A DNA stretch of 61,177 bases from a virus (IMGVR_UViG_3300025009_000108:1-61177), one strand, 5' to 3'; positions 20,785 to 53,080 are shown, numbered from the stretch's first letter. Program-made: numbers and translations. Notes: generated by a model from the sequence alone, not told the origin.

Positions 20785-21141
20785 TCATTCCCCGAACTGA
20801 ATAGTCAACGTTTTAGGCGCCTTTGGATAAACTATCGTTTCGGACGGCTCCGGAATTGTGTACACGACGATGTTTGAGTCCGGCGATTCGATAGTTCCCT
20901 GATATGCTCGCGCCACGAATTTAAATGTCACGCCGGCCGGAAAGTCCGGCAATGTGCATGTCGTAGTGGTTCCCTGCCAGGCAGGGGTGGTATAAACGAA
21001 CGGTTGGCTTTCAGGAGCCCAATAGATCCGATACCCTTCAGGAGCCGGAACGCTGGCGTCCCATCGAAGGGTTACGTCATTGGCCTGAACTGCGCCGCAA
21101 AGCGCGAATACCGCCAATAATGCCAAGGTAATCTTTTTCAT
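20785..21141 (-). CDS. Exported fibronectin type III domain protein
   Basis: AGGAG RBS; signal MKKITLALLAVFALCGAVQA; VTLRWDAS...GYRIYW...FVARAY...ES.DSN. Confidence 0.85.
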   Translation of the reverse strand: MKKITLALLAVFALCGAVQANDVTLRWDASVPAPEGYRIYWAPESQPFVYTTPAWQGTTTTCTLPDFPAGVTFKFVARAYQGTIESPDSNIVVYTIPEPSETIVYPKAPKTLTIQFGE

Positions 21142-21184
21142 TTCGTAATCTCCTTTTTTTATTGTAAAGTAAACTCCATACCGC

Positions 21185-22525
21185 TTATCGGTAATTACCA
21201 GTCCCATAAAATATAGTCCCGGTGCCTCCAAAAGAGCGCGCTGGAACTGGAGTTGGTGTTGGCTCTCCGTCCACATACTCGATCGCCCCACGATCCCATT
21301 CTCCATCAGCACCCCTTTGCGTTCCTGCCCAATCCTGAGTGTAGGGGCTTGACAGCGTATAACCTGCATCCATGGCTGCAACTGCTGCTGGGGTAAGCGA
21401 GAAGTCCCCGGCTGCAATATTGACGAATGGGTTTCCAGTTCCAGTGTAGGCGCTGGTGCCAGAGGTAACATTCGAGCATGACCACCACCCGTTGTGTGTA
21501 TTTGTAGGGGTAGAATTTTGAAACCCCGCGTTAGAGTTGTAGCATACATTATTCCTAAACTCTCCAGTGACGCCAGTATCGCTTCCGAGGATTCGGTTGT
21601 TGCAACTAATAAATGCATTGTTGTATATGTACGCCTGGAGAGAATAATGCACACCAGCGATAATTCCATCTCCTACCGTTATATCGTAAAACACATTGCC
21701 ATAGATATAGTATGGACCTGATGGAGCATTAAGAGCAACTATACCGCCAGTTCCAGAATCGCGACCCTCAATCCAATTATACCGAATCGTCCACCAGCGG
21801 CAATTCCCATAGTTGTTGTTAAACTCTTCTCCATGCTGGGCGGCAGAACTATATCCATTTAAAATAACATTGTATTCACTTAACCAATAGTCGTTTTTGT
21901 TGTCCGCCGCTTCATACCCAGCTGTACCCCATTGGAAGTTTGACCATCCATTTGCGAGACAATGACTGATAGTCAGATAATGAACTCCTTCGCTGGAGTT
22001 ATCAGTAGAGAAAAAGAACTTTTCTACGTCTCCACCCGGAGCTGTGCCGGTGAAGTGTGAGAAAGTAATGTCAGTTATTACCGCATTAATATTGTAGGCG
22101 GAAAGCGCTCCATTGGAAGACGCCGTAACAAAACCATAATCGGATGCGGTCTTACTCATTGAACCTTTTGCGCCGTCGATCACCCAATAGGAAGACTGCA
22201 CCACAAGACCACCGGTAAAAGACGCCTGGCCATCCCCAAGGCCAGAACTCCAATTAGACAACCCACCGTAATCAGAATCAGTCGCCTTTTTTACTGTTAT
22301 TAATGTTGTTCCTGAAACCGCAGTGCTAAAGGTTTTTCCGGCGTATGTGCCATCTACTAAATAATATGAGTTTCCGCGTGTCAGCGTGCTCGACCACGCC
22401 AGAAGATTATTATAATCTGACCCACTACCGTTACCAGTGGCCGAAGGTCCGACTGCATAGTTCGCAGCAAAACAGTTGCCTAAAAGCATCAGCATGACAA
22501 CTGTTGCGCGAATTATCGTTTTCAA
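21185..22525 (-). CDS. Exported right-handed beta-helix (pectin-lyase-like) protein
   Basis: Signal peptide; Asn-rich beta-helix pattern; DFSL...DAG...DRGAIEY C-terminus. Confidence 0.75.
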   Translation of the reverse strand: MKTIIRATVVMLMLLGNCFAANYAVGPSATGNGSGSDYNNLLAWSSTLTRGNSYYLVDGTYAGKTFSTAVSGTTLITVKKATDSDYGGLSNWSSGLGDGQASFTGGLVVQSSYWVIDGAKGSMSKTASDYGFVTASSNGALSAYNINAVITDITFSHFTGTAPGGDVEKFFFSTDNSSEGVHYLTISHCLANGWSNFQWGTAGYEAADNKNDYWLSEYNVILNGYSSAAQHGEEFNNNYGNCRWWTIRYNWIEGRDSGTGGIVALNAPSGPYYIYGNVFYDITVGDGIIAGVHYSLQAYIYNNAFISCNNRILGSDTGVTGEFRNNVCYNSNAGFQNSTPTNTHNGWWSCSNVTSGTSAYTGTGNPFVNIAAGDFSLTPAAVAAMDAGYTLSSPYTQDWAGTQRGADGEWDRGAIEYVDGEPTPTPVPARSFGGTGTIFYGTGNYR

Positions 22526-22536
22526 GTTATGCTCCC

Positions 22537-23328
22537 CTATTGTGCCTTAAAGGCCATGAACCCTGATATATATTGGTCACTTGAGTCTACTGTTGCAAAG
22601 TTCCCAGCAGGATAAGATCCGGTTGAGCTTACAATCTTGTCAAACGCACCCCAATGGACACCACTTGCTGCGCTCCTTCGATTAAAGCTACCGGCAGCGG
22701 TGTAGGTATGATCGTTATTCCAAGATAGTTCAAAAGCAACCAGCAAATCGTTGGCGTTCGTGGTAGTAATATTTTGTGCCGTTCGATTCGTTGACGAAGC
22801 CGCAATATCGTTGCAGCTCGCGCTATTGCAAGAAAATCCATCGAGCGCAGAACTGGTTGCAACTCCGCTATAGTTCATGCACTGGATGCCGTTATAAGTA
22901 CTTGCGTATCCCGGATTTGCAGCAGCGCATGTTGTCGAGCCGGCCGTAGCGCCTTCTTTATACCAATAGCTGACTATGTAATGAGCCGCTGTAACCGTAG
23001 TCACTCCAGCCTTTGTAAGCGAGTTTGCGCCACAATCTACGGTAGACCAATCTTGATTGTCGAACTCATACCGTCCTGCTTGGCATACCAAAAGATCATT
23101 TGTGGCAACATCTAAATTGGTAGATGTGGTAATGGTATTGACAGAGGTATCTACCACGTTTAAAGCGATGTTCTTGTAAGCTGGTGTTGGAGACGGAGTC
23201 GGCGTAGGCGTGCCGCCAGACACCCTAAGCATAGCAGGCTGCGAGGAAGACCACCACGCATTTGCCGTAAACGGTATAATAACCGCGCAAACCAGCAAGA
23301 AGCAAATAAGGTCTACGTATCTCTTCAT
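22537..23328 (-). CDS. Exported beta-sandwich virion-type protein
   Basis: Signal ending ANA; PTPTP linker; two NDLLV-type repeats. Confidence 0.7.
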   Translation of the reverse strand: MKRYVDLICFLLVCAVIIPFTANAWWSSSQPAMLRVSGGTPTPTPSPTPAYKNIALNVVDTSVNTITTSTNLDVATNDLLVCQAGRYEFDNQDWSTVDCGANSLTKAGVTTVTAAHYIVSYWYKEGATAGSTTCAAANPGYASTYNGIQCMNYSGVATSSALDGFSCNSASCNDIAASSTNRTAQNITTTNANDLLVAFELSWNNDHTYTAAGSFNRRSAASGVHWGAFDKIVSSTGSYPAGNFATVDSSDQYISGFMAFKAQ

Positions 23329-26300
23329 TAGTCTGCCGCCCCTCCATCAGCGCAAGCCGCAGTTTCGGAAAATACCCGCCACTCGTTTTCAGCGGTACAC
23401 ATCAAGGTAACTTTTGTTCCAGCCGTAGCGGCCATATCCAATTCATCATTTGCGCCGATACCGGTTCCGTCGAATAGATAGAATTGATCGCCAGAAGCAG
23501 GAACAACTTCAATTTTTTCTGCGTCACGCGCCCACAACGTAACGAAGTTGCCAATCGTTGCTGCGGTGCAATCCCACATGGTGACTTCATCGGCAGTCGT
23601 CATCTGAATAATACCGCCGCCATTATCAGCCTGGGTTGCTGTTCTGGCCGCAACGTAAGAATTAAACTTGGCCCCTGCTTGGAGTGCGATGTTAGCAAAA
23701 TCAATCGCCGTAACGCCGGTGCCGGTGCCCACCACTACCTTGTTGGCCGTTCCATCTGTGTCTATTGTGAGATTTTCGTTGTTCGCCCCATTGACAGAAG
23801 TAATTGTCAATACTCCGTCTGTTGCGCTCAAACGAACGTCCGCGTCATTGGGATCGGCAGCAGATTCATCAAAAGTAAGCGTTTGACTATCCGCAAAGGT
23901 AGCCCCACCGTTCAGGGCAACGGCTGGGGTGAATGCGAATGTTGCACTGGTGCCGCTGGCAAATGTCCAAAGGTTGGTTCCAGCGGTGGCGGTCATGTCT
24001 TCGCTATTCGCGAACCATGAAAAAGCGTTTGAGATATAACCCGCTTCCCCGTCAGCATTGGCAGCCGAGTTTCCCACAAAAGCCGGGGCTGTCTGGTTGC
24101 CGGTGTAGGTGTTCGCGGCGGTCGTTGACAGTGTGGCGGTTGCTGCTGGGAATGTAATTGTGGCGTCTGCTGCCTGCGAAGCGTTCGGAACAAGGGTGGT
24201 GCTATAGTCGGTGGCACCAAGTTCGTTATAAAGCACCAGAGAGCCGTCTTGTGCGTCTGCTCCGAGGGTCATGGCGTTTGTGGTCTTGTTGAACACAAAT
24301 CCAGTGTCACCGCCCAGGGCCGACCCGCCATCATTGAACTGAACCTGAGTATCAGATCCAGCAGCGGCAGCAGTAGGAGACGCCCATGTGAGCGTTCCGC
24401 TTCCATTGGTCTGAAGGTATTGGCTGGCATCACCATCGTTGGCCGGAAGGGTCAGAGTGTAGCTTGCAGCCATGGCCTGGGTTGTAATCGTTGCCGTGTT
24501 ACTACCATCATCGCTGTCTTCTGCGATGGTGAGTTGCCCCGCACCTGTCGCCCCGCGATTGATCGTGAGCGCAGCAGAAAGTGTTTTAGCTCCGCTGATG
24601 GTCTGTGCGTCCTGGACATTTACAACCGCTTTTTCGGAGCCATTGACAGAGTACTTCAGTTGATCAGATGAGTCTGTTTCAAACCATATGGCATACTCAG
24701 AAGCGCCAGGAGATCTTCCACCTGCATTGTTCGCCAAAGATATATAGGAGTCTCCTGAACCTGTAACTTGAAAAGACGTGGCATAAATAGTTGACCCTGA
24801 CTCTATTGGGCCTTCAGTGTACAAAGAGTTGGTCGTTGTTGCGTATGTCGGGGCAACGGTTGTATCGTCATCGATCCATATCGCGTGCGAATTTGCCCCG
24901 CGTAGTACGGATTGCACAGCGAGGGTATCTGTGTCGGCATTTCCAAAAGTAAGCGACCCGGTAAAGGTCTGATCGCTACCAAGGTTGGCCAAGGTTTGCG
25001 CAACGTCAACCAACGTAATAGCCCTGGCAGTGGACAAGCCCGTAATCGTAGCGTAACCGGTGCCATCAGAATCGTAGACGCGGTTGACGTGCCCAGAGGC
25101 GTCGACATCGGCAGCGGCTACCCGCTGGTGCGTTGTTCCGTCAGAGATGTCATCAATACTTCGGCTGGTGATCTGTGTAATGTTGGTCAATGTAATATCG
25201 TCAGCGACGTAAGCGTTCGCAACCGCCGTGCCCTGCCACGTCCCGGCCGAGATTGTTCCAGCGTTGGCTATGCCCCCACTGAAGGTTGTAGCCGGCGTGA
25301 TCGTCACTCCAGAGGCCCCCGAAGCACCGATTGCAACCACTTCGGCAGAAGTCACCCCGATTACCGATATGTCAGTTCCGGCAATATCCGCTTCTGACAT
25401 GATATACCCAGCGTTTGGAAGCCTGATCGACCCGGCATCGGAGGGATCGGCCCCCAAGGCTATGTGCGATGAAGCAGCAAGCGATGCCGCCCCGGTGATG
25501 TTATTCGACGCGTCAACCGATATGCCCGTTACCTGTGTCAGGTTGCCGGTACCGTTGGTCTTGATAAGTCTCAAATCAGTACCAAAACCGGCGGGGCCAA
25601 GAACGATGGAGCCCGTTTCGGCTGGGATCGTAACCGTAACATCTGATCCAGCGTTTGCGCCAGCCAAGGCGATTTCAAAATCGTTTACCGTGGCGCCTTC
25701 AAAGTAAAGCGTGTTGGCTACGTTGCCGTCAGAAGCCCCATTTGTAAAAGCAACACCGCTTGAAGCATCGCCTACCGCTGTAATGTCACCAGAACCAGCC
25801 GGATCGCCCCACTGAGGATTGGCGCCTGCGCCTTGGGTTTGAAGGAACTGCCCGTTTACACCAGGACCAAGATTTGCGATATTGGTTCCATCAAAATACA
25901 GGATGTCTCCCTGGGCCAAAGTCTCATCGGCGATGTCAGTCAAATACGCATCAAGGGGCTGATAGGTTGTCGCCGGGAGGGTGCTTAACACGCCGGCATC
26001 AGAAGACACCACCAATGCATTCGCAGCTCCAGGATAAGCCGTTGGGAATGTCCATGTCAGGTTGGCGATGGAGTTTCCGGGGGAGAGCTGTGTGTAATGG
26101 CTGTCACCGTCATAAAATCTAATGTAGGTCCCGCCGTCGCTCGAACCATCTCCGCATGCTCCGTCTACACAATCACCAACTGAAAGAACGTCACCAGAAG
26201 ACGAAGCCGCCAGAGCTGCTATAGCCTGGGCAACCCGCAAAGGAGACATTGATCGAAGAGCTGCTTCGGTTCCTGCTTCCATTTCGGCTTGGCTCGCTGC

Positions 26301-26897
26301 GGATAGGGCAGGTTCGAATGTGGCCGGGTTGGTCCAGCCACCAGTGCCATCAGCATCAACATTGAACAGGTAGTTGGCCCCGCCCGGGTACGCCGTTGGT
26401 ACTCTAATCCCCCACGATTCGGTGAAATTCGCCCCGTAAAGATCGAAGCTGAAGTTATTGGCTGGGGTATTAGAGTAGATTTTAAGGGTACCGAGAGTGG
26501 TTCCAGCAACGCCAAGCTCAAGACCGCCAGCCCCGCTGATCGTGAGACCAGCAATAGACAGGGTAGAATCCGCTATGGACCCGTCTCCGTCAGCGTCGAT
26601 GGTTGCCATCAAATAATCAATCAACGCATTTTGAGAGGCCCCATGAGATGTATCCCCGTTCATGTTCGCTGCTGTTACTGCTTCATCAACGACTTCGGCG
26701 GTAGCCCCAGAAAACTGCGTAGCGAGGATCGATGGCGACCAAACCCTTGTCCTTGTCTCGGTCCCTGCGGTCAGTTCTGCCGCAGATCCGGCAGGCGGAG
26801 GCGGTATGGCAGGAACGCCACCGGTCCTTTCGAGACGAGAGGTAACACCACAACCAAACATCAAAAAGGCAATGCCGATCAAAAACAGCTTTTTCAT
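23328..26897 (-). CDS. Long tail-fibre-like protein with lipoprotein signal
   Basis: MFGC lipobox; Gly/Thr-rich fibre repeats (YTLTLPANDGDASQYLQTNGSGTLTW, GSDTQVQFNDGG). Confidence 0.8.
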   Translation of the reverse strand: MKKLFLIGIAFLMFGCGVTSRLERTGGVPAIPPPPAGSAAELTAGTETRTRVWSPSILATQFSGATAEVVDEAVTAANMNGDTSHGASQNALIDYLMATIDADGDGSIADSTLSIAGLTISGAGGLELGVAGTTLGTLKIYSNTPANNFSFDLYGANFTESWGIRVPTAYPGGANYLFNVDADGTGGWTNPATFEPALSAASQAEMEAGTEAALRSMSPLRVAQAIAALAASSSGDVLSVGDCVDGACGDGSSDGGTYIRFYDGDSHYTQLSPGNSIANLTWTFPTAYPGAANALVVSSDAGVLSTLPATTYQPLDAYLTDIADETLAQGDILYFDGTNIANLGPGVNGQFLQTQGAGANPQWGDPAGSGDITAVGDASSGVAFTNGASDGNVANTLYFEGATVNDFEIALAGANAGSDVTVTIPAETGSIVLGPAGFGTDLRLIKTNGTGNLTQVTGISVDASNNITGAASLAASSHIALGADPSDAGSIRLPNAGYIMSEADIAGTDISVIGVTSAEVVAIGASGASGVTITPATTFSGGIANAGTISAGTWQGTAVANAYVADDITLTNITQITSRSIDDISDGTTHQRVAAADVDASGHVNRVYDSDGTGYATITGLSTARAITLVDVAQTLANLGSDQTFTGSLTFGNADTDTLAVQSVLRGANSHAIWIDDDTTVAPTYATTTNSLYTEGPIESGSTIYATSFQVTGSGDSYISLANNAGGRSPGASEYAIWFETDSSDQLKYSVNGSEKAVVNVQDAQTISGAKTLSAALTINRGATGAGQLTIAEDSDDGSNTATITTQAMAASYTLTLPANDGDASQYLQTNGSGTLTWASPTAAAAGSDTQVQFNDGGSALGGDTGFVFNKTTNAMTLGADAQDGSLVLYNELGATDYSTTLVPNASQAADATITFPAATATLSTTAANTYTGNQTAPAFVGNSAANADGEAGYISNAFSWFANSEDMTATAGTNLWTFASGTSATFAFTPAVALNGGATFADSQTLTFDESAADPNDADVRLSATDGVLTITSVNGANNENLTIDTDGTANKVVVGTGTGVTAIDFANIALQAGAKFNSYVAARTATQADNGGGIIQMTTADEVTMWDCTAATIGNFVTLWARDAEKIEVVPASGDQFYLFDGTGIGANDELDMAATAGTKVTLMCTAENEWRVFSETAACADGGAAD

Positions 26898-26905
26898 TTT
26901 GTCTC

Positions 26906-29494
26906 CTATTGGCCAGTAATGGAGCCTGCGCCATCACCATTGATTGTGGCGGAACCTCCACCGCTAATAATCCCCAAGCCTGTTACTACTGGTAGTATAT
27001 CAAATTTATAAACATCCGTCACCATGGCATTTCCGTCCGTATCTGAAGCATCAATTGACACATTGACCTCTTGCCCATCGCTGTAATCGGAAGGGTTTAA
27101 GGTTACGGTATAGCTTGCGGTTGTTCCGCTGGTGGCAAGGTCTGCCGTTCCTCCTGAGCATGTCTCGCTGGTCGGGCAATGTTTATTGCCTTCCTCGTAA
27201 AGCACGATTGATGATCTATTGACTCCACCGCTATCCGACACAACAAAGCTTATATTGGTGCTTTTTGAAACACCCGTTGCGTTCTTAGCAGGGGACCATC
27301 CGGAAACAACCGGTGGAGATACATCTCCATCCGCCGTGCCTACAAAAAAGTCGTCTATCCATATTACTTGATCAGCGGAAAGATCATTCTGTCCGCTCAG
27401 ATACGGACCAAGCACCACTTGGTTAAAAAACTGGGAAGTGTACCAGCCCTTTTTGATAACGACATTGGTTGCAGTGAAAACCGGTGAATCAAAATCGTCT
27501 ATCCACATCTGCAATATACCATCTTGATTGATGGTAGATCCGGTAAGCGTGTTCATTTTTACACGGTACATGACCTCATGCCACTGGCCGTCAGCAAAGG
27601 ATGATATAGATTGCTCCCACCATCTTACGTTTAGGTTTCCTATACTGCTGCTGCCAGAAAAATAGCACGAAACTCCCGTGCCGGCATTGGTGAAGTTCCC
27701 ATGACCTCCGTGAGCAGCTCCCTGGCTAAAGTTGGCTGTAAGGTCAGTGCCTATTTGGTCGTCGTTTTGCCCATCACCGTCCAGGTCCAGGTTTTTTGCG
27801 TCCTGAAAACTCATGGTTAGAATATTGTTATATTCATGTTCCATGTAGGCGGTAAGGTGCGTGTTGGCCAGTCCAGCCCATGCGCTATCTGCGTCAGTTT
27901 CCAGATAAACCCAATGATCCGCATATGTACCAAGACCATTGCCAACATAGTTCGTTGAGGATTTAAATTTGTACTTTACATAGATCTCAGGCGTCTGACT
28001 GAACTGCGCTCTGAGACTTCCAAGAGCACTCGCCGTTCCACTACCGTTGGTCGGCCTGTAAGCCCCTGGGGTGAAGCGGTACTCAAAGACATACCCGTTA
28101 TCGGCAACAAAGTTTGCAGCGTTCCAGGAGCCTGCGGCGTGCCCCACCACGCACTTGTAGAGCTGCCCAGAGTAAATGACATCATCCCCGATATTATAGG
28201 CGGTACTCGATGAAAATGTTGAAGCCGAACGTGTAGCCCGGTCCGTATCGATCACAAATCTCTGATTGATATCGTCATAGCATCCGGCTGCGGTCAATCC
28301 GGCTGATCCCGTTTCGGCGTGAAGGTAAAGAAGCGTGACCGGAGGAGGAGGGGCCTGGTCATTATCGGTCAATACGATGGTAGCGGTATTCGGCGTTCCA
28401 AGGTCATATGTAGCCCCGTCCGTGATGGTCAATATGGCCGCCTCATCGCCTTCGGAAAGCGAATCATCGACCGGCGTTATTGTAACCGTCGCCGTGTATT
28501 GCCCAGAAGCGATAGAGGCCGAACCGCTCACGGCTGAGTAGTCCGTCCCGCTGGTAGCCGTCCCGCTCATCGAGTAAGCAACCGTCAAAGGGCCGGCCGT
28601 GTCGCTCGTGATTGTAAATGTTCCGGTAGTCGTCCCTTCTTCCGTTGCTGAAGAATCTGTAGCGGTCACGGTAATCAATGGATCTGTGCTTGCCGACAGA
28701 GGGCCTATCCTTCCAGTTGTGCTTATCGCTATGTCGTCATAGTAAACCGTGAAGGTTTGTCCGTTATCCGCTCCGGTGAAATCTGTTTTGACGTTGGAGG
28801 GGAAAATCAAATACCTTAGATTGCCATAAGTTACTAATCCATTCTCATCTATAACCGGTGTCGGATTGTCTACACCGTCTACGTACTCCCACATTCTGAA
28901 AACACCAGAAGAGGAGATATAAACCTCCATAGCGTGCCAAGATCCACCGCCACGGCCTGCATTATCATAGAAGTCATCCCAATTATTCGTGCTTTGCCTG
29001 CCAGACGTACCATCCCTGTCATACAGCCTAAAGTCTGTAGTGTTCTGATCGAAATACCATGAATCCGTGGCAAAATAGATATAAAGAAGCTTATGGCTGC
29101 TGAACCCGAGTGAATGCGACAGGGGCATTCCGCTTGGATGGTAAAAGTACCATCTAAGATATATTTGAGGGGTTGAATCAGGTACGTCTATGAAAAACCC
29201 GGAACCTGTCGGACCTGTGCTTCCAGTTGTGTTCCCATCACCAACCTGCCAGTAAAGCCCGTTACCACCGTCTCCACCTGAATAATTCGATCCGGCAGAG
29301 ATCCCGCTATTAAGACTTGAGCATGTTCCGATCTCCCATCCGTCACAAATATCATCTCCAGAGTTCGCGGAACAATAAGCATTTGTGACATCCAGGGTCG
29401 AGCAATCGAACGTTGTTGACCATGGCAACGAGGTTATATCGGCGCTCGCCGGGACAACCATCAAAAGAAAGAATAAGCACGCAAGACGCTTCAT
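26906..29494 (-). CDS. Exported multidomain carbohydrate-binding/adhesin protein
   Basis: Signal ending ASA; two lectin/lyase-like jelly rolls, Calx-beta-like segment, CBM5/12-like YNIGDDVIYSGQLYKC, Ig-like SPAKNATGV. Confidence 0.75.
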   Translation of the reverse strand: MKRLACLFFLLMVVPASADITSLPWSTTFDCSTLDVTNAYCSANSGDDICDGWEIGTCSSLNSGISAGSNYSGGDGGNGLYWQVGDGNTTGSTGPTGSGFFIDVPDSTPQIYLRWYFYHPSGMPLSHSLGFSSHKLLYIYFATDSWYFDQNTTDFRLYDRDGTSGRQSTNNWDDFYDNAGRGGGSWHAMEVYISSSGVFRMWEYVDGVDNPTPVIDENGLVTYGNLRYLIFPSNVKTDFTGADNGQTFTVYYDDIAISTTGRIGPLSASTDPLITVTATDSSATEEGTTTGTFTITSDTAGPLTVAYSMSGTATSGTDYSAVSGSASIASGQYTATVTITPVDDSLSEGDEAAILTITDGATYDLGTPNTATIVLTDNDQAPPPPVTLLYLHAETGSAGLTAAGCYDDINQRFVIDTDRATRSASTFSSSTAYNIGDDVIYSGQLYKCVVGHAAGSWNAANFVADNGYVFEYRFTPGAYRPTNGSGTASALGSLRAQFSQTPEIYVKYKFKSSTNYVGNGLGTYADHWVYLETDADSAWAGLANTHLTAYMEHEYNNILTMSFQDAKNLDLDGDGQNDDQIGTDLTANFSQGAAHGGHGNFTNAGTGVSCYFSGSSSIGNLNVRWWEQSISSFADGQWHEVMYRVKMNTLTGSTINQDGILQMWIDDFDSPVFTATNVVIKKGWYTSQFFNQVVLGPYLSGQNDLSADQVIWIDDFFVGTADGDVSPPVVSGWSPAKNATGVSKSTNISFVVSDSGGVNRSSIVLYEEGNKHCPTSETCSGGTADLATSGTTASYTVTLNPSDYSDGQEVNVSIDASDTDGNAMVTDVYKFDILPVVTGLGIISGGGSATINGDGAGSITGQ

Positions 29495-29502
29495 TTTATC
29501 TC

Positions 29503-31862: not shown

Positions 31863-32335
31863 TATCCCACCTGCAAAAGTTTTGGTATCTTAGAAACGAT
31901 CTCACCGGTTATAAATTCAACCATCCTCCAACCATCAGTTGTTAGGCATAGGGCCTGCGAATGATCTATATCGTCTCTTGCTGCCGGCCAAATAGCAAGC
32001 TCCTGGGAGTCATTATCACCGGACTCTCTGCAATCTGCGTCAAACTCGCGTTTCATGATTGAGCATCCGTCAATAGCGAAATTATCGCAATCGAGTCGTC
32101 CGTTGTCTTTACCATCGGCGTTGCTCATGATGCTTGAAAGTGATTCTATCGGCACCCTTGATATTTTTGCCATCCAGTGGCGTGCCATTATAACGCGCCT
32201 TCGAAGGTCTTCTGGATCGGTGATAAAATATCCCGTATCTCTCAAGAGGGCTCCTGAGCTGATTTTTCGTCCGAAAAACCCGCCTTCGAACTCTTCAAGG
32301 CGTTTTCTGACTTGCGCCGATGAAATGTTCATCAC
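31862..32335 (-). CDS. Papain/transglutaminase-like cysteine protease candidate (MOA/Agglutinin C-terminal-like)
   Basis: DCDNFA...H.QAL....GWRMVE gives a possible Cys-His-Glu triad. Confidence 0.6.
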   Translation of the reverse strand: MMNISSAQVRKRLEEFEGGFFGRKISSGALLRDTGYFITDPEDLRRRVIMARHWMAKISRVPIESLSSIMSNADGKDNGRLDCDNFAIDGCSIMKREFDADCRESGDNDSQELAIWPAARDDIDHSQALCLTTDGWRMVEFITGEIVSKIPKLLQVG

Positions 32336-32796: not shown

Positions 32797-32810
32797 CTGG
32801 TGCTCCTTTC

Positions 32811-42017: not shown

Positions 42018-43320
42018 TTTGTACCTCCGGCGTTTCGGTCCTACTATAACACGGATATAATTCCGGCGCATACTGTTTTATAAGCGCCAGGTATTTTTCT
42101 TCATAAATCTTGTGCGCTTCCTCAAAGTCTCCAGACTCCATGTGCTCCATTATCGGGGCGATGGTGTTCTGCTTAAAGTCATTGTAGAAGTTGACAAGAT
42201 CAACGTTTAAACGCTCTTTTATCGCCTTGACCAATTTAGGAGCGTTCACAAAATAATGCATAGCTATTCTATGGTGATTCTTTTTCGAATAGTGCTTCAA
42301 GGCTTCAAGTTTTTCCATTATCAGGTCTTCGATGCCTACGATTTTTCCGGTTTCGGTGCAAAGCCAAGAAACGTCATCTATCACATCACTAAAAAGGTTT
42401 GCCCCGGCACTGATCGGGTCTATCAAACCGCCAATGACATCGGCGGTTCTGTCATCTGCTCCGGTAAAGTCCTTTATGCCTTCATGTAGAAAATCGTATC
42501 CGGCAACCCCAATTGGATTAGCCCATTGATTAACCATGGCCGGCCCCTCTGCGGTCATATCTCCCCAATCTCCGCGAAGTACGGCAGAGTCAAAGCGCTC
42601 TCCAGCGGTCGGACGATCAAAGCTTTGTTCTGCCCAACCCATCCACGGTTCCGTAAAGAAGCGCGGCTCCCAATTGCCCTCATCGTTTGTGCTGAAAACA
42701 TCACCAGTCTTGATCCCTTTATATTCCCTATCCGTATCTTTTGATAGGGCGTGCTGTCCTGCGATTATAGCTCCAATAGCCGCCGTTGTGCCCAGGGCGC
42801 CACCAGCTCCAGCGGTGGCCCCGGCTTCGGCGCCACCTGTCGCGCCAACAGAGGAAGCCGCACCTGCCCCACCAGTTCCAACAAGGGCCGATTCTGCCGC
42901 CGCTGGCGCCACTGTGGTTGCGGCGGGAGCAGCGGAAGCAGCAGCCCCTTCAGAAAAAAGTCCAGCCACAGAACCTACCCCGGACTTAATATAAGGTGCC
43001 GACTGAATGGCCAAGCCAGCCGATGAAACACCTGTCGCAAGGGCTGCTTGCTTTTGAGCCTCTGCGCCCTGCTCTTGCTGGAGTTTAAGCGTTTCTCCAT
43101 ATTGCTGCTTTTGAGTATCCAGGTTCTCTTGGAACTGTGATTGATTTTGGGTAAGTTCTTTTTCGTACAGCTCTTTTTGCTGGTCCATCCGCTTTTGCTC
43201 AAGATCCCGAGAAAGCTTACTGTAATAAGCCTCTCTTGCAGTGGGAGCTTCGGCGCGGATAATATCGCTGTATCTGGGAGATCCTACCTTGCGACCGGTC
43301 AACGAATAGAAGGGGTCCAT
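42010..43320 (-). CDS. Putative ejection/internal virion protein
   Basis: Coiled coil plus Gly/Ala-rich hydrophobic tract; C-terminal WLCTE domain. Confidence 0.65.
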   Translation of the reverse strand: MDPFYSLTGRKVGSPRYSDIIRAEAPTAREAYYSKLSRDLEQKRMDQQKELYEKELTQNQSQFQENLDTQKQQYGETLKLQQEQGAEAQKQAALATGVSSAGLAIQSAPYIKSGVGSVAGLFSEGAAASAAPAATTVAPAAAESALVGTGGAGAASSVGATGGAEAGATAGAGGALGTTAAIGAIIAGQHALSKDTDREYKGIKTGDVFSTNDEGNWEPRFFTEPWMGWAEQSFDRPTAGERFDSAVLRGDWGDMTAEGPAMVNQWANPIGVAGYDFLHEGIKDFTGADDRTADVIGGLIDPISAGANLFSDVIDDVSWLCTETGKIVGIEDLIMEKLEALKHYSKKNHHRIAMHYFVNAPKLVKAIKERLNVDLVNFYNDFKQNTIAPIMEHMESGDFEEAHKIYEEKYLALIKQYAPELYPCYSRTETPEVQNA

Positions 43321-43323
43321 TTT

Positions 43324-43827
43324 TTACTCCACTCTTAGAAGTTTAACCCATTCGGCCCAGCGCTGTTCTTCAGCGGTTCCGGCGTCCTGGTATTTTTTTA
43401 TAATCTGATCCATCGCCGCCTTGCGGTCATCTAAGCGATTCATTTCTTTGTAGGTTCCGAGTCCTTGCAGTCCTAACCCGGCCACGGAAAGACCGGTAGC
43501 CCAATTGCCAGCGCGTTTGTTGTGCGCCATCTCTTCGCCGGCCATATCCATGCTGTCAGAAAAGCGCTGCTTGTCGAAATCCAGGCTCTTTTGGAATCGA
43601 TCAGATTGAGCCGATAATGATTTTTCGGCCATCTCCTTGTTTTGGGCGAGTCCCTTTTCAGCCAGGCCAAGACGGCCTTGTGCATTTTCAGCTCTTTTTT
43701 GCACGGCGTAATCTCGCGCAGATGATTCGGTGATGGCATCTTGGGCAGAAGTGTCAACGGCCGGTCCTGCCTGTCTTCCAAGGCCCATTAAAAGCCTATC
43801 AGTTAATTGTGGCGTCCATCTAATCAT
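43324..43827 (-). CDS. Putative ejection/internal virion protein
   Basis: Helical with GLSVAGLGLQGLG segment; synteny. Confidence 0.65.
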   Translation of the reverse strand: MIRWTPQLTDRLLMGLGRQAGPAVDTSAQDAITESSARDYAVQKRAENAQGRLGLAEKGLAQNKEMAEKSLSAQSDRFQKSLDFDKQRFSDSMDMAGEEMAHNKRAGNWATGLSVAGLGLQGLGTYKEMNRLDDRKAAMDQIIKKYQDAGTAEEQRWAEWVKLLRVE

Positions 43828-43829
43828 GC

Positions 43830-46800
43830 TTAATCCTCTCTGATCATGCGGGCTTTATACCCCCATACCAGCGGCTCCCATTTTTCCGATGACGTGGAAG
43901 CCGCAAAATCTACCTGATACAGATACCCCATAATGCCCATGGACTTTTCACCGGCCTCATTCCTGGAAACTGCTCCTGAAGCTGCGTTAAGCGGTATCGT
44001 CAGGGTCTTGCTCGATAAAGTACCATCGACATAAGCCGATACAGTCACATCTCTGTCTTCAGTGATTTTAGAAGACATGAGTTTAATGTCCCTAAGTTCT
44101 GCCTGAGTCCAAAAACCGATTTCATCCGCAACAGGTGGAGAAAATAGCCCGGTCTTAATTTCCTGGGATATGGCCGTTCCGTTCCATGTAGCGCCGTAGT
44201 CAAGGCGCATCAGATGCCCTGAAGCAAGATGCCCGTAATTGTAGCGAACACCGTCAGAATCCTTAACCGGAACAGTGTAAACCGGATATTCAGAAGGAGC
44301 CTTGCGATACCAGCGCCGGCCTTTCAAATCACACACCAACCATGTGTTATTAGCTGCCGCCGCTGCTCCTGAAGGAATCAAAAGATTGTATTCATGATGG
44401 ATATGGTCGTAATAGGCCGTAGCAAGGCTGATATTGGAAGTATTTATGTATTCTGTCTTGGTGGTGTCAAAATAGTTCTCAATGCCAGGCATCGGTGTTA
44501 AAATCGCGCCGTCGAATAACACAGGTCCGGAAGAGTCGAGCCAAATAAGGGCATTTCTTTTCGCTTCTTCAGCTACTTCGAAGCCAATTTCTGCTGAAAC
44601 CATCGTCATGGGAGCCGGGCACCCGATATTGGTTGAGATAGTCCTCTTTACGAACGGCTCGTTAAAGTCAAAATAGGGTTGCGCACCGGTCAAAAGGTAT
44701 GTTTCGCCGGTTTTGCACACTATCCAAGATTCAATAATGTTGGAGCCGTATCGGTTGAATAGGCTGGAAGTCGCCGTGATCTTGTTTTCGTCACCGAAGA
44801 ATAGAGAAAGGCGCCCGCCGTCCGATGTATTGACCCCATTATAGACCCAAGGGGCATCCGGCAGGCTGTAGTCAACTCGGTTATCTTTTATAAGCATGGC
44901 GCGGCCGGAGTAGAAGCCCACCTTATCATATCCCGTCATCTTCAGGGGCGCGGCGATACCGGTAAGTAAATCTATACTTGTGCCATCGTGGGCGGTGCCA
45001 TCCGTCAACGTGCCGCTGAGGTTTATTCGGTAAACATATCCAAGCTTGCCGAACTTTTCAACGGGCTGCTCAAGGTTGAGTGGCAGCGGAGACCAACTGA
45101 TAGACCCTGTTTGCGCAAACGAAGTAACGAAGGCCGGGGCAGTCTTGTCTTGCAACGTGCCGACAGTCGTATAATCCGAGCCATCCCAATAGTCGATTGA
45201 GGAAATTGCCGCAGCAGCGGCATTGACCTTGGCGCCCAGCATGGTTACAAAGATACCCATAACTGGATCATCGAACATAATGAAGATTTTGTCCGTGGCC
45301 GTCAGCCCTCCGATAGTAGCCGCAAAGGGTGCGTCAACGGTGGATTTCTCATTTACCTGGTAGGTATAATCCTCATATTTTGAAGATCGTAACGCCTGAA
45401 ATGCCGTGCATGTGCGTTCGGATGCGTTCCATACATCCTTGACAGTTTGCAACGGCGCACCGCATGTAACCTTGTATATGTTGGCTGTCCCGGTAGATAG
45501 ATGAAATCTGTACCAATATAGTACAACTCCGTTTAAATATCTTAGCTTTGCCAGATTGGCGGCATCTGTGAATGAAATAGTGCCGGTCTGGTTTAGCGGG
45601 ACAGCGCCCACCCTGGTTCCGTCCGTAAACGTCATGTCGCTCCATGACCCACCAGACCAAACCGATCCAGATAAAGTCGCAGAAACAGTATTCGGGTTAG
45701 AAATATAAAGCTTGATGGCGTTCAGTTGCAGAGGAGAACCGACATAGAAATACTGCTGTTGAGCAACGACCGTAAGGGAGTAAGGAGCTACCGGCGGAGT
45801 GAAATCCGAAACAAAACGTGCCAACCCTTTAGTGACGCGGTATTCGTCCAGATAGGTCGGGTTTACCGTCAACCCTACTGTGTTCTGTCCAGCTATAATC
45901 AATGGGGTAGAAAGATTTGGCATCGTGATGTTGGCCGTAGCTATAGCGATCGCCACTCCATCGGATACAAGGGCGAAGTCGTTTGCGTTTCCGCCCCACC
46001 CTCTCACCACCGCGAAATGATGCCATGCATCGGCGCCCAAAACTGAGGCCGAAGGAGAAGTCAGGCTCACCAGTTCGACTCCGCCAGACACTACCCTGAA
46101 GGAAACTTCGATAGAATCAGAAGAAAATCTATACGCGGTAAAACTTATTGTGTTGTCACCGTCTACATATTGGCGATAGATGAAACGCGCTCGGGCGGCG
46201 ACGAAACTTGGGAACCTGCACCATGTCTCTATGGTAAACGGACTGGTCCCGAAGTCCCAATCGCTTGAATCCGGCGTTGTCAAATAATCCTGGTCTGGAT
46301 CGAAGTATCCGCTTTTACCAAAAACACCATCGTCAGCCTCAACATGCGCACCCCCAACAGCCGTTACCGTGTGTAAGCCAGCCGTGTCCGTAAAAGTGGT
46401 AGAGCCATCAACCCCATTCATGTGCAGCAACAGCTTCGTATAGGTGTCCGTCGTACCTCCGGCCAACGTAATGTATTCGGAGGATAAATCGTTATCTACC
46501 AGATTTGTTCCATCAACGATATCTCCCTCGTCAGGTGGCACAAAAGCGTTGGATGAAGTGAAAAACGATGCAACTCGTAACTCATCTCCGCCATAAATCA
46601 ACGTGGCGTTATCATCGGCATATAACATCGTGCCGGCAGGCCCGGCAGAAAATGACCCCTGACCGCTGGCCATGAAAACGTTATTCAGCGTGTTGCTGCT
46701 CAGTGCGGTTGTAGAAAAATTGCCCTGCTGAGGTACTGCGGACGTGTTTTCATAAAGGAGATACGAGGAGCCGTTATAGGCCTTGGTGATGAAATGGGTT

Positions 46801-47084
46801 TCATCGTCCTTGCGAAACTGGAACCCATTAATGATGGTGCCAGAGATCGGGGTAGTGGTAATAGCCGAATATCCCTCGACGGTTTCAAGTCCCGTATCGT
46901 TGTATCTCAAGTTGTTTAGAACGGTATAGTTTTTTGCTCCAACATGAACAGGATTGATGGCAGGAAGCCATTGACCCATGAAAGGTAATTGGAATATCTT
47001 ATCGGCGGTATCCCAGGATATCGATAAAAGGGCAACGGTCACCAAGATTACCGCTACCGCAAATTTTTTGCCGTGTTTGCGCAT
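43830..47084 (-). CDS. Tail nozzle/DNA-stabilisation-type protein with LamG insertion and N-terminal signal
   Basis: TKLLLHMNG...FTIETW...WHHFAVVR...YLDEYRVTKG LamG; beta-propeller-like C-half; position after the adaptors. Confidence 0.75.
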   Translation of the reverse strand: MRKHGKKFAVAVILVTVALLSISWDTADKIFQLPFMGQWLPAINPVHVGAKNYTVLNNLRYNDTGLETVEGYSAITTTPISGTIINGFQFRKDDETHFITKAYNGSSYLLYENTSAVPQQGNFSTTALSSNTLNNVFMASGQGSFSAGPAGTMLYADDNATLIYGGDELRVASFFTSSNAFVPPDEGDIVDGTNLVDNDLSSEYITLAGGTTDTYTKLLLHMNGVDGSTTFTDTAGLHTVTAVGGAHVEADDGVFGKSGYFDPDQDYLTTPDSSDWDFGTSPFTIETWCRFPSFVAARARFIYRQYVDGDNTISFTAYRFSSDSIEVSFRVVSGGVELVSLTSPSASVLGADAWHHFAVVRGWGGNANDFALVSDGVAIAIATANITMPNLSTPLIIAGQNTVGLTVNPTYLDEYRVTKGLARFVSDFTPPVAPYSLTVVAQQQYFYVGSPLQLNAIKLYISNPNTVSATLSGSVWSGGSWSDMTFTDGTRVGAVPLNQTGTISFTDAANLAKLRYLNGVVLYWYRFHLSTGTANIYKVTCGAPLQTVKDVWNASERTCTAFQALRSSKYEDYTYQVNEKSTVDAPFAATIGGLTATDKIFIMFDDPVMGIFVTMLGAKVNAAAAAISSIDYWDGSDYTTVGTLQDKTAPAFVTSFAQTGSISWSPLPLNLEQPVEKFGKLGYVYRINLSGTLTDGTAHDGTSIDLLTGIAAPLKMTGYDKVGFYSGRAMLIKDNRVDYSLPDAPWVYNGVNTSDGGRLSLFFGDENKITATSSLFNRYGSNIIESWIVCKTGETYLLTGAQPYFDFNEPFVKRTISTNIGCPAPMTMVSAEIGFEVAEEAKRNALIWLDSSGPVLFDGAILTPMPGIENYFDTTKTEYINTSNISLATAYYDHIHHEYNLLIPSGAAAAANNTWLVCDLKGRRWYRKAPSEYPVYTVPVKDSDGVRYNYGHLASGHLMRLDYGATWNGTAISQEIKTGLFSPPVADEIGFWTQAELRDIKLMSSKITEDRDVTVSAYVDGTLSSKTLTIPLNAASGAVSRNEAGEKSMGIMGYLYQVDFAASTSSEKWEPLVWGYKARMIRED

Positions 47085-47758
47085 TATTTCTGCTGGTCCT
47101 TTACCTGAAGGTCTTGTCGGTAAAAGCCTATTTCCTGGTTATACTTTCCCATCATGGATTCGTGCATGGCCGTGTTCTTGTCCTTTAGAGCCATGCGCGA
47201 TAAAATGTAGTACTTTAGAGCCACGTCATATATTGCCGGAGTTGAAATAGTTCCTGAAGACACTATCGGTACGGGCCATTTCACAAGATAAAGCGTGACC
47301 GTCTGAGTCGTAACAGAAGAAAGAGATGGATAAATGCCTATTTTCCCTGCAAATTCGTACCAAAACGCCGGGGCGTCCGTGTCTGATTCTTCCGTGTTTA
47401 ATCCGATCTCCGCAGGGCTTCCTTTTTTAAGGGCAAATTTGTTTGTGCCGTTATAGTACTGCACGGCTACAACTTCGACATAGTTTGAAGTAATCGAGTA
47501 TTCTACCGTGTTGGCTACAAGAGATATGCTTTCGGTTGCTTCGTAGCAATGCGATTTGTTTACCAGGTCGACAATGCCGTCATTGAGGAACTGGAGCATT
47601 TCCGCATCGGTGAAATAGACTGAAGTAGTATCGTTGTAATCGGCTCGTACTTGGGCGATCATGGACGAACCGGTTGTACTAGAAACCTGCTGAGAGCCGG
47701 CCATGCAAACCGAAAATAACGAAAAAACCGCCACGATAGCCCAACATATCGATTTCAT
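47084..47758 (-). CDS. Head-tail adaptor-like protein with signal peptide
   Basis: TGATG-coupled start MKSICWAIVAVFSLFSVCMA; FTDAEMLQFLNDG...IGIYP...P..YDVALKYY..RMALKD. Confidence 0.75.
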   Translation of the reverse strand: MKSICWAIVAVFSLFSVCMAGSQQVSSTTGSSMIAQVRADYNDTTSVYFTDAEMLQFLNDGIVDLVNKSHCYEATESISLVANTVEYSITSNYVEVVAVQYYNGTNKFALKKGSPAEIGLNTEESDTDAPAFWYEFAGKIGIYPSLSSVTTQTVTLYLVKWPVPIVSSGTISTPAIYDVALKYYILSRMALKDKNTAMHESMMGKYNQEIGFYRQDLQVKDQQK

Positions 47759-48624
47759 CAATCTGAGTCTCCCCATGCGTTCCGAATATATTGTGGCTCC
47801 GAAGACGCTTTTAACGAAAGCCCTATTTGAGCCGTGATCATATTGAGCATGCCCTCGTGGAAGCGCTTGCTTTCGATGATATCCCCAAAAGTGGGATCGT
47901 CCGACTTTGGGATTCTGATAAGGTCAAGAACGGCGAAAGATACCAGCCCTTCATGGTATTCAGCCGGAATATCGGTTATGGCTGATGGGGCCTTCTCGTA
48001 ATCGATCATCACGTCATTGGTAAAATCGCGATCATCGACTATGATCTCATTGCCCCTTGGATACCATTTACGATCATTGTCCTGGCTTGCGTCGGGAAGG
48101 ATAATCCGCTTGATCTCATCCGGCCACAAAGGTATTTTGAAGGCGTACCCTCCAGATGTCCAGGCTGAACTATAACCGGTTCCCTGAAGGGCGTAGGAGT
48201 CGGCGCTGATGTAGCTTATACGGAAGGTTCCATTAGCCTCTGTCGCCCCGCCAACATCGTGTTGCATAATCACATCTCCGTCAGCGAAGCCGTGGTCTGT
48301 TACGCTCATGATGACCAAACCACCGCCGCCGAACGTGATGGGCAGAACATATGGGAATGTGCCGGCTGTAATACCGCTTACCGCTTTGGCTGTTGTGCCA
48401 AGATCCCACAGCTTTTCAACCCGAATGCAATCCGAAGGCTTTGTGAAGGCATGAGTTTCGGATTGCAACGATTTTCTAACGAGAAAATAGCTCGGGTCGG
48501 TCTGCTTGATCTTGATTCCCATGACAGTGACACCCCTGAGCAAAACCGCAGAGATGTCACTGCTGGAAAGGCGCGGGTTTCTACAACCGCGTTGCACGCT
48601 CGCTATCATTTCGGCCTCAAGCAT
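47758..48624 (-). CDS. Head-tail adaptor-like protein with inserted beta domain
   Basis: KPSDCIRV...IPAEYHEGLV; insert HGFADGD...VGGATEANGTF. Confidence 0.7.
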   Translation of the reverse strand: MLEAEMIASVQRGCRNPRLSSSDISAVLLRGVTVMGIKIKQTDPSYFLVRKSLQSETHAFTKPSDCIRVEKLWDLGTTAKAVSGITAGTFPYVLPITFGGGGLVIMSVTDHGFADGDVIMQHDVGGATEANGTFRISYISADSYALQGTGYSSAWTSGGYAFKIPLWPDEIKRIILPDASQDNDRKWYPRGNEIIVDDRDFTNDVMIDYEKAPSAITDIPAEYHEGLVSFAVLDLIRIPKSDDPTFGDIIESKRFHEGMLNMITAQIGLSLKASSEPQYIRNAWGDSD

Positions 48625-48633
48625 TGGGGCCTC

Positions 48634-49881
48634 CTAATATCCGATGATGCGCACCTTAACGCTTGTCATGTTTGAAAGATTGCTCGCGTTCGCGGCCTCA
48701 AGCTGTACAATGCCGGGGATTTCGTAGGGCTGGCCGGCAATATAGCTCAATTTGACATGATCACTATCGGCGTGGTTACTTCCGAAAGTCAATGTGTTGG
48801 CCGTGTTGTTGATCGTCGTTGGCTGCGCAAGAGTAGCTGTAGTGCCTACCGCTCCAGCCGAGCGTATAAGGTTGGCGAACTTGGTAGTTGGCCCGGCAAG
48901 ATCACCGCAGGTCCCGTAAAGCAGCATGTTCGATCCTGCCGCAATACCAGAGGAGGCCGTCACAATATCAGATGACGGCGTAAGGTCATCCTCTTCGATG
49001 AAGCGGTAATTCAGGAATCCGGACCCTGGGTTTTTGATGTAGCTGATATAGACGCTATCGGTTGCCGCATCCAGGGTATCAGTCTGAAGCACGCTTAGGC
49101 TGGTGGTAGAACTTCCAGAATCGGTAAAATCGATGGTGGCTTCAGCCGTGGCGGCAGTCTCGGACTTATAAAGCGCCTTCATGGGTTTGTAGGTGCCGTT
49201 ATCATTCCAAAGCACGGATTGAATCGCAACGGCATACTCGCCAAGGCTAATTACGTCCGGGGTTCCTGCGGTAAAAGCCAGAGATGCGTGCCCCTGGACC
49301 CTTGCACCCGCAGTGACGATGGCAAGAACGTAGTTATCAAAAACTTCTTTCCATGCCTGAGTCACATAGGTCACGTTGCAGGCCGTAACAGAATCGCCGG
49401 CAAGGAAGGTCAGTGTGTTGCGGGTGCCCCAAACAGGCTCAGACACGGAGACCGACCCTGTAACAGGAGTAAGCCCTCCAGGAATGACCTTATACGATGC
49501 ATTTCCTGCGCTGACATACATGATATAGGCAGCCGGGTATTTGAGTGTGCCAACGTTCGTAGACACCGTTACGGGCTCTTCAAACACGATGGGCGGAGCG
49601 TCAGTGAACGCCTTTAGCTTTTTGTTGGTGTAATCGTACTCGAAATTGACCCCGCCAGTTGATTGGGCATCCACCGTATCGATGTTGGTGAATCCCAGAG
49701 TCGCATAATCCAGGCTCTCACCGCCATAGGCATACGATGAATCCCAGGCGATAGTGCATGTGAGCATGCGGCGTGCGCCGAGGTTAGTGAATTTTTTGTT
49801 GCTTACCGTCAATGCGGCGGAGGCCGGGATAGACCAGGCCACAATCATGATGAGGGCAAGCATAAAGCGAATATGCTTCAT
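48634..49881 (-). CDS. Capsid decoration/minor capsid-type protein with signal peptide
   Basis: Signal ending ASA; DSSYAYGGE...YDYTNKKLK and C-terminal EAANASNLS...VRIIG enclosing a large insert. Confidence 0.65.
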   Translation of the reverse strand: MKHIRFMLALIMIVAWSIPASAALTVSNKKFTNLGARRMLTCTIAWDSSYAYGGESLDYATLGFTNIDTVDAQSTGGVNFEYDYTNKKLKAFTDAPPIVFEEPVTVSTNVGTLKYPAAYIMYVSAGNASYKVIPGGLTPVTGSVSVSEPVWGTRNTLTFLAGDSVTACNVTYVTQAWKEVFDNYVLAIVTAGARVQGHASLAFTAGTPDVISLGEYAVAIQSVLWNDNGTYKPMKALYKSETAATAEATIDFTDSGSSTTSLSVLQTDTLDAATDSVYISYIKNPGSGFLNYRFIEEDDLTPSSDIVTASSGIAAGSNMLLYGTCGDLAGPTTKFANLIRSAGAVGTTATLAQPTTINNTANTLTFGSNHADSDHVKLSYIAGQPYEIPGIVQLEAANASNLSNMTSVKVRIIGY

Positions 49882-51298: not shown

Positions 51299-51310
51299 GA
51301 TTATCTCCTA

Positions 51311-52174: not shown

Positions 52175-52200
52175 GACTGTTTCCTTTCTTCCAGTTCCGC

Positions 52201-52629: not shown

Positions 52630-52642
52630 ATCGTTCTCCAAA

Positions 52643-53079: not shown

Positions 53080-53080
53080 A

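Follow-up and report, generated by a model that had tools for sequence, protein, structure and literature searches.

The window analysed here is a DNA stretch of 61,177 bases, the virus record IMGVR_UViG_3300025009_000108, which consists of a single contig from a short-tailed phage. Our main finding is that ten genes of its long late operon, all located within 20785-49881, begin with N-termini resembling Sec or lipoprotein export signals, and that two of these ten genes securely encode core tail parts, namely a ring adaptor of the SU10 type and the tail nozzle. Assembly of tailed phages is described as wholly cytoplasmic, the podophage tail being built stepwise on the filled head. As the best single explanation we infer a split assembly, in which the exported pool of tail proteins would build the virion at lysis, and we give this full model, which is drawn from sequence, a probability of about 0.4. 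What we observe, and what anchors the model, is that the N-termini have signal features, that these are conserved, that two of the proteins are an adaptor and a nozzle, and that the signals of these two partners are paired.

The late operon lies on the minus strand and extends from the terminase at 58466 down to 20785, in the order terminase, portal, scaffold-like protein, major head protein, a protein of 415 amino acids (aa), two adaptor-like proteins, a 1084-aa protein, four internal proteins, two small proteins and eight more. Signals were called with a hand-written rule, which asks for a net charge of at least +1 within no more than 12 residues, then at least 9 uncharged residues with a mean Kyte-Doolittle value of 1.7 or more, and finally a site with small residues at -3 and -1 or a lipobox. 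Applied to 68 open reading frames (ORFs) that we picked ourselves, it flagged 10 of the 17 inside 20785-49881 versus 1 of the 51 outside (Fisher p 6.6e-7). As controls, internal Met-started segments of the same proteins were flagged in 4 of 201 cases, and shuffled residues 2-40 of the flagged proteins in 229 of 2200.

The ten N-termini carry one to four Lys or Arg, followed by 9-21 uncharged hydrophobic residues and by a cut site or a lipobox. Eight are of the Sec type, with small residues at -3 and -1 (starts at 49881, 47758, 47084, 30561, 29494, 23328, 22525 and 21141), and two are of the lipobox type (31862, LSGC, and 26897, MFGC). Both of the latter begin with MKK and have their Cys at position 16; the M and F at -3 and -2 of MFGC are less usual. 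By the PROSITE-type criterion, a lipobox Cys follows a hydrophobic core at roughly position 15-35, with K or R near the N-terminus. None of the ten n-regions contains RR, which ruled out the Tat route, and the route would therefore be Sec, with the chains unfolded. Left unflagged were terminase, portal, scaffold, capsid, the first adaptor, the internal proteins of 167, 436, 295 and 2790 aa, and the small proteins of 154 and 157 aa. The first-pass annotation had placed signals at these same ten starts and none on capsid, scaffold, portal, first adaptor and ejection proteins; under the rule both statements hold. The Cys content is 0.93% in the mature signal-bearing proteins versus 0.50% in other late proteins.

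A Shine-Dalgarno (SD)-like motif lies 9-17 nucleotides (nt) upstream of nine of the ten signal-bearing starts, and at the tenth (30561) the start codon adjoins the stop codon of the preceding gene. No SD-like motif precedes any in-frame ATG, GTG or TTG near the predicted cut sites of the ten genes, so that true starts downstream of the hydrophobic segments, a concern raised in the first-pass annotation, find no support. Internal leaderless initiation was likewise rejected as a general device, the candidate codons having no SD-like motif and the Met not being conserved. It is very improbable that the N-termini reflect wrong start codons or chance hydrophobic stretches: the ORFs were self-picked and some database relatives are annotated with other start codons, but the enrichment inside the late block and the SD-like motifs led us to reject this explanation, and in-frame extensions are kept in dozens of divergent relatives. 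We consider it likely that the ten N-termini are real Sec and lipoprotein signals, because charge and hydrophobicity are kept among relatives without sequence conservation, the -3/-1 site is kept, and leaderless orthologues start at the predicted cut.

The two adaptors and the nozzle are encoded as follows (here and below, a slash marks a predicted cut):

47758..48624, minus strand: 288-aa portal-proximal (first) adaptor-like protein, no signal; called by position and N-terminal likeness to the next gene
47084..47758, minus strand: 224-aa SU10-type adaptor, Sec-type signal in codons 1-20 (47758-47699), predicted cut CMA/GSQQ or AGS/QQ; called by Pfam, profile and rule
43830..47084, minus strand: 1084-aa tail nozzle, LamG-type insert at approximately residues 218-435, signal-like N-terminus in codons 1-23 (47084-47016), weaker cut SIS/W; called by fold and rule

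The 224-aa protein matches PF24175 with 73.6 bits (cut-off 27; E 3.8e-20), its residues 29-211 covering profile positions 2-179 of 194. A profile built from 22 adaptor relatives matches PDB 8jov_2, present as 12 chains in the GP4 portal-tail complex, with E 2.1e-7 and with profile position 30 aligned to chain residue 5. Together these matches bear out the adaptor label that the gene at 47758 had been given from sequence inspection. Since the adaptor domain begins at residue 29 and the GP4 chain is matched from residue 5, the extension is an add-on to the solved ring protein; these 20-28 signal-like residues in front of the domain depart from the solved members, although a start without a leader does not define the fold. 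The 288-aa protein is probably an adaptor as well, judging from gene position and its N-terminal likeness to the 224-aa gene; in Pfam it gave only a sub-threshold E1_FCCH match.

Loci of relatives, which are uncultured phages, were taken from three collections. Cultured phages are distant, with terminase identities below 36% and, for the adaptor, one weak match in the phage collection, to an Arthrobacter phage. The adaptor extension is present in 18 of 22 database relatives, and a signal-like extension is found in 27 of 35 sources (one of the other eight is cut by a contig end), or 23 of 28 after identical N-termini were merged. The first, portal-proximal adaptor has a signal in none of 20 sources. 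The extensions share no sequence; what they keep is charge, a hydrophobic core and a V/A/S-aromatic-Ala site right before the conserved GSQQTSS, and adaptor relatives devoid of a leader start M-GSQ, exactly at the predicted cut. The window adaptor has an in-frame ATG two codons before this cut, not preceded by an SD-like motif, and a Met is found at that position in 2 of 18 signal-bearing relatives (by eye). No leaderless second copy of the second adaptor or of the nozzle was seen in the window or in the loci read. Two loci (L020:2954-4689 and L033:9983-11371) carry tandem SU10-type adaptor paralogues, both copies bearing signals, and one L020 copy is lengthened to 348 aa. In the L033 phage (62 kb), the only relative that was read over its full length, both copies of the adaptor and also the nozzle are signal-bearing.

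The nozzle was recognized by its fold. An AlphaFold2 (AF2) model made from 21 sequences (predicted local distance difference test, pLDDT, 84.5) matched in Foldseek, with probability 1.00, cyanophage A4 9k09_U (1.6e-16), SU10 7z4f_G (1.4e-15), 8eap_D (3.5e-10) and 9jyz_P (2.8e-8), and the solved nozzle-type matches span cyanophage A4, SU10, the crAss001 muzzle, Pa223, GP4, P22 gp10 and the T7 tail chain. The template modelling (TM) scores by query are low, 0.24-0.34, as expected for a multi-domain model, and a sequence search of the nozzle against solved structures gave nothing useful. The earlier designation of the gene at 47084 as nozzle-like is confirmed by these solved podophage nozzles, at E values from 1.6e-16 to 2.8e-8. 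Its N-terminus has four positive charges and a 15-residue core, and residues 5-20 form a low-confidence helix in the AF2 model.

The nozzle is signal-bearing in all 15 sources that have a signal-bearing adaptor and a nozzle start, and in none of the three with a signal-less adaptor (L001-L003, one phage). A database search found signals in 11 of 15 nozzle orthologues (by eye), the other 68 of its 83 matches sharing the LamG insert only. Because nozzle and adaptor signals are paired in this way, and the first adaptor has none in 20 sources, the partners appear to share a compartment and the border to be constant. The predicted signals are thus conserved clade-wide, and their border always falls at the junction of the first and second adaptors; the survey of homologous phages that the first-pass annotation had proposed came out in its favour, with 23 of 28 distinct sources for the adaptor and 15 of 15 for the nozzle beside a signal-bearing adaptor. 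The simplest reading is that the distal tail would be made outside the cytoplasm, because the orthologues of virion parts are single-copy or have signals on all copies, the signals are paired, and the portal-side adaptor is signal-less.

Several other features of the nozzles deserve mention. A Gln is exposed at the predicted cut in 11 of 15 nozzle relatives (by eye), a hint that these relatives infect Bacteroidota; the cut sites of the window itself do not obey this Q-rule. The insert is of the LamG or concanavalin type (PF13385, phrog_24074 and phrog_13163) and common to hundreds of unrelated large proteins, and its Foldseek partners are lectin-like domains, among them binding domains of clostridial toxins. 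The nozzle could thereby carry its own receptor-binding module. A second nozzle-like N-terminal motif, which we take to be T7 gp12-like, occurs both with and without a signal-like leader (P0172 and P0179 versus P0153, P0159 and P0166), and the signal trait may have arisen in more than one podophage lineage.

According to the split-assembly model, the second adaptor, the nozzle and most of the fibre-like proteins would be threaded unfolded through the host inner membrane, eight proteins via Sec and signal peptidase I. They would be trimmed to the same mature N-terminus as that of their leaderless relatives and would then fold in the periplasm, while the two lipobox proteins, taking the lipoprotein pathway, would stay lipid-anchored. 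Capsid, portal, first adaptor and internal proteins would be made in the cytoplasm, the site of DNA packaging. The two halves would have no chance to meet until lysis breaches the inner membrane, and the exported second adaptor would then be joined to the leaderless first. Export, cleavage, periplasmic assembly and joining at lysis are the steps to which the signals point, and each is put forward as a conjecture. Heads can pass through holin lesions, which are of sufficient size, and heads and tails can be joined in lysates. For the window phage we assume a host with two membranes. By extension, we suggest with some hesitation that a large group of uncultured podophages would preassemble tail and receptor-binding gear in the periplasm, by an independent tail pathway outside the cytoplasm, while DNA-filled heads closed by the first adaptor wait within it, so that holin-triggered joining would gate infectivity; we hold this to be possible, with the odds against it.

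The first of the ten genes is the following:

48634..49881, minus strand: 415-aa conserved late protein, Sec-type signal in codons 1-22 (49881-49816), predicted cut ASA/ALTV, AAGGA 14 nt upstream; called by rule

It had been described as capsid-decoration-like, a label that is not supported: neither a decoration fold nor a sequence match was found with Foldseek, VIA, Pfam or PHROG. The AF2 model (pLDDT 92.1) is all-beta and multi-domain, but Foldseek gave 0 matches in the PDB at E 0.001 or better; the best VIA Z of 7.8, with rows that are mostly tail and neck beta-sandwich domains, is inside the tool's stated noise range, and no Pfam or PHROG family was matched.

The signal-bearing genes downstream of the internal proteins are:

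30561..31862, minus strand: 433-aa lipobox protein, LSG/C with Cys16 (31862-31815), fibrous repeats and a C-terminal domain; called by rule
29503..30561, minus strand: 352-aa protein, Sec-type signal, cut SMA/D, start abutting the upstream stop; called by rule; phrog_30287 (unknown function)
26906..29494, minus strand: 862-aa protein, Sec-type signal ASA/D, Calx-beta, CBM5/12 and Big_5 domains; called by rule; AGGAG 10 nt upstream
23328..26897, minus strand: 1189-aa lipobox protein, MFG/C, Cys16, fibre-like by weak leads; called by rule
22537..23328, minus strand: 263-aa protein, Sec-type signal ANA/W; called by rule; no family match
21185..22525, minus strand: 446-aa protein, Sec-type signal CFA/A, TTG start; called by rule; sub-threshold DUF5123 match only
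20785..21141, minus strand: 118-aa protein, Sec-type signal VQA/N, fn3 domain; called by rule; AAGGA 14 nt upstream

The 433-aa protein has 1859 representatives at E 0.001 or better. Its repeats (residues 100-165) recur up to 21 times in relatives, and its C-terminal domain (260-432) is widespread and always located at the extreme end of proteins of 123-2001 aa; the predicted architecture is fibre-like. Signal-like N-termini were found in 75 of 150 representatives related to this protein, and in 70 of the 88 that share the C-terminal domain. Its own N-terminus gives a weak match to phrog_1119, the Cor family (E 0.009), confined to residues 1-28, that is, to the signal region only. For the 433- and 1189-aa lipobox proteins, every one of the nearest Atlas clusters is viral and some contain fibre families, and those of the 1189-aa protein include tail-fibre families at scores of 0.89-0.91; both results are leads only. 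Searches of sequence against solved structures returned Calx-beta domains only for the 862-aa protein and nothing useful for the proteins of 1189, 433 and 446 aa. Both lipobox proteins carry the motif LER[ST]G a few residues after the lipid-bearing Cys, and the proline-rich N-terminal region of the 1189-aa protein is common to P0219, which has a lipobox, and to P0217, which is of the Sec type.

The rest of the late operon encodes:

50309..55228, minus strand: head module, with portal (715 aa), small proteins, scaffold-like protein (287 aa) and major head protein (329 aa); signals absent by rule
32811..43827, minus strand: four internal or ejection-type proteins (167, 436, 295 and 2790 aa); unflagged for signals

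Portal and major head protein match phrog_156 and phrog_9953, respectively. The 2790-aa polyvalent protein contains an LPD38 domain, and the leaderless small proteins of 154 and 157 aa sit after its gene. Outside the late block, the sole signal-like N-terminus belongs to a 234-aa protein (17130-17834, minus strand), the hydrophobic core of which ends in AQG-C; it is possibly a lipoprotein, with no family match and no C-terminal membrane segment by eye. A leaderless 136-aa protein (18446-18856, minus strand) matches, at E 4.6e-16, phrog_1158, a family of tail (fibre) assembly chaperones; were the fibres to fold in the periplasm, a chaperone in the cytoplasm would be unexpected. No spanin was recognized among the window proteins.

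An 18-base tandem repeat is identical at both ends of the contig (3-180, 9.9 copies; 60971-61177, 11.5 copies). Most likely a single array was cut in two where the contig was opened, which would make the genome circular or terminally redundant, and complete. Bin labels of relatives (L033, Deltaproteobacteria; L034, Woesearchaeota) were rejected as a guide to the host, phage contigs being easily mis-binned; a search for the portal in the two bin-labelled genomes found nothing. In L001-L003, the clade with signal-less adaptor and nozzle, the capsid-like gene is apparently in pieces (5329-5622 and 7331-7789, within 5329-7789), with two ORFs bearing LAGLIDADG-like motifs (by eye) between them; this may be an intein or intron-type insertion, and the one-piece counterpart, of 340 aa, is found at L034:6593-7615. 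Even so, the L001-L003 clade is not free of signals: one signal-bearing gene lies between its portal and scaffold-like genes (L001:2772-3827), and L034 has another in that position (4710-5351).

A number of observations weigh against split assembly. The signal calls rest on the hand-written rule and on the comparison with relatives. For the 415-aa protein, 15 of 100 relatives were flagged and one more was judged signal-bearing by eye, which leaves about 84 of 100 with no signal; most of these leaderless relatives start M-[AS]-L-T, at the predicted cut of the window protein (ASA/ALT), and one relative that has no signal (P0025) is 77% identical to the window protein. On a FastTree tree of 65 rows, computed with N-terminal columns removed and excluding rows shorter than 350 aa as well as 12 rows that lacked the anchor motif, there are at least 7 changes of signal state, and 6 changes are forced by well-supported branches. 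As the signal is absent in most relatives and has changed so often, it seems dispensable for the 415-aa protein. The cut site of the nozzle (S-I-S) is the weakest of the eight, and its N-terminus could be an uncleaved anchor. The L033 phage has fibre-like genes of 556 and 580 aa after its ejection proteins that lack signals; the split proposed in the first-pass annotation therefore does not always take in the whole outer tail. Similarly, the two genes that it had called lipoprotein-type and fibre-like do have lipobox features and some fibre leads, but proteins lipid-anchored in a membrane fit poorly with free virion fibres and would be hard to release into a particle. Cys pairs, which had been proposed as a mark of exported folding, fail to tell the two kinds of relatives of the 433-aa protein apart: among those that share its C-terminal domain, the 70 with a signal and the 18 leaderless ones do not differ in Cys content or in the conserved Cys pair. 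We treat this argument as neutral. Finally, by our own reasoning, a head devoid of distal adaptor and nozzle must keep its DNA from leaking before the cell lyses, and once lysis has occurred joining has to compete with dilution.

Other explanations were weighed as well. Rather unlikely, in our estimate, is that the signals are real and that the exported pool is not the pool that builds virions. Virions would then come from molecules that escape export, through a Sec system saturated or shut down late or through rare internal initiation, and the exported copies would have another job, such as receptor masking (against superinfection, or against progeny loss on debris), envelope remodelling or help in lysis. 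The frequent gain and loss of the 415-aa signal and the coexistence of close relatives of both forms fit this explanation, since the protein seems to be tolerated in both locations. An internal start would be offered by the ATG located two codons ahead of the adaptor cut, but it has no SD-like motif and its Met is not conserved (2 of 18, by eye). Phage lipoproteins that adjoin receptor-binding genes act in exclusion, as Cor and Llp do, and the weak Cor-family match of the 433-aa N-terminus points the same way; exclusion, however, explains neither the export of a ring adaptor and a nozzle nor the pairing of their signals in 15 of 15 sources. Moreover, uncleaved precursors with a hydrophobic N-terminus would need to fit into a 12-fold ring.

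We regard as clearly unlikely a more limited view, which is compatible with exported adaptor and nozzle, and in which these two, and perhaps the 415-aa protein, would be the only virion parts among the signal-bearing proteins. The eight genes at 20785-31862 would then encode accessory enzymes and adhesins, exported or surface-anchored, much as lambda carries lom and bor at the end of its late operon. Their Calx-beta, CBM5/12, Big_5 and fn3 domains are typical of secreted bacterial proteins, two of them are lipoproteins by their lipoboxes, the C-terminal domain of the 433-aa protein sits mostly on exported proteins (70 of 88 signal-like), and none of the eight could be identified as a tail fibre from a family match or a solved relative. 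The genome would, however, be left with no receptor-binding protein, as only the leaderless 154- and 157-aa genes remain after the 2790-aa gene; the Atlas clusters nearest to both lipoproteins are 100% viral, some with fibre families (again as leads), the 433-aa architecture is fibre-like, and a tail-fibre-chaperone-like gene (phrog_1158) lies downstream. Unlikelier still, the N-termini would be uncleaved membrane tethers or insertion helices kept in the virion, which would hold assembly at the inner membrane or help to pierce the envelope of the next host. The charges, core, weak cut and low-confidence helix of the nozzle N-terminus would suit such a role, and podophage tails rearrange on binding (SU10, PMC9509320). 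Tethers would not account for a -3/-1 pattern that is kept in nearly all adaptor relatives while the rest of the extension drifts, for two lipoboxes with Cys16, or for leaderless relatives that start at the predicted cut, and a positive n-region would in any case place the mature part outside the membrane.

Should the exported pool build the virion, as split assembly proposes, head-tail joining would be gated by lysis, periplasmic folding would be open to tail parts, and heads would need to keep their DNA in while the neck is only half built. Signals on adaptor and nozzle that are conserved within the clade, paired, and absent on the head side are hard to fit with wholly cytoplasmic assembly. 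Split assembly would also matter for annotation, where the presence of a signal peptide is often taken to exclude a structural role, and for host prediction, as cut-site rules, including Gln at +1, follow the host signal peptidase.

Characterised members of the SU10/GP4-type tail are assembled in the cytoplasm. The window resembles this podophage tail (PDB 7z47, 7z4f and 8jov; also 9k09, crAss001 7qok, P22 gp10 and T7) in its adaptor by sequence, in its nozzle by fold, and in its gene order of portal, head genes, adaptor, adaptor, nozzle and internal proteins. It differs in the 20-28 extra signal-like residues that precede PF24175 position 2, or GP4 chain residue 5, and in the LamG insert of its nozzle. 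Filamentous phages (Inoviridae) have coat proteins with signal peptides and assemble at the membrane (PMC4823517). Their likeness to the window is in one respect, namely that virion proteins pass through the host Sec system, in the window by inference, before joining the particle; unlike them, the window encodes a tailed phage with terminase, portal, head protein and nozzle, and a DNA-filled head is not extrudable through a membrane.

Tailed phages also export proteins that are not part of the virion, among them the exclusion lipoproteins Cor and Llp, Lom and Bor of lambda, and the spanins. Lipoproteins of the Cor and Llp type are tens of residues long. The RI antiholin of T4 is a further example (PMC8385771). 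Like the window genes, these have Sec or lipoprotein signals on late-region genes, with lipoproteins adjoining receptor-binding genes; they are, in contrast, small accessory or lysis proteins, whereas the window signals are on adaptor, nozzle and proteins of 433-1189 aa. A Cor/Llp-type identity was rejected for the two lipobox proteins, the phrog_1119 match being limited to residues 1-28 and the proteins being 433 and 1189 aa long.

Phages of Porphyromonas gingivalis have SignalP-positive genes, some of which obey the Bacteroidetes Q-rule (PMC10367356), and in this they are akin to the 11 of 15 nozzle relatives that expose Gln at the cut (by eye). The signals named there are on capsid, where a prohead protease explains them, spanins and genes of unknown function and, in the passages covered, not on tail parts, its gene list in Supplementary Data 4 lying outside our coverage (PMC10367356); those of the window are on tail parts. 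In the literature searched, with subscription journals and supplements outside its coverage, we found no description of signal peptides on the adaptor, nozzle or fibres of tailed phages. The adaptor and nozzle families of podophages are themselves known, and it is by the predicted leader on members of both that the window departs from them.

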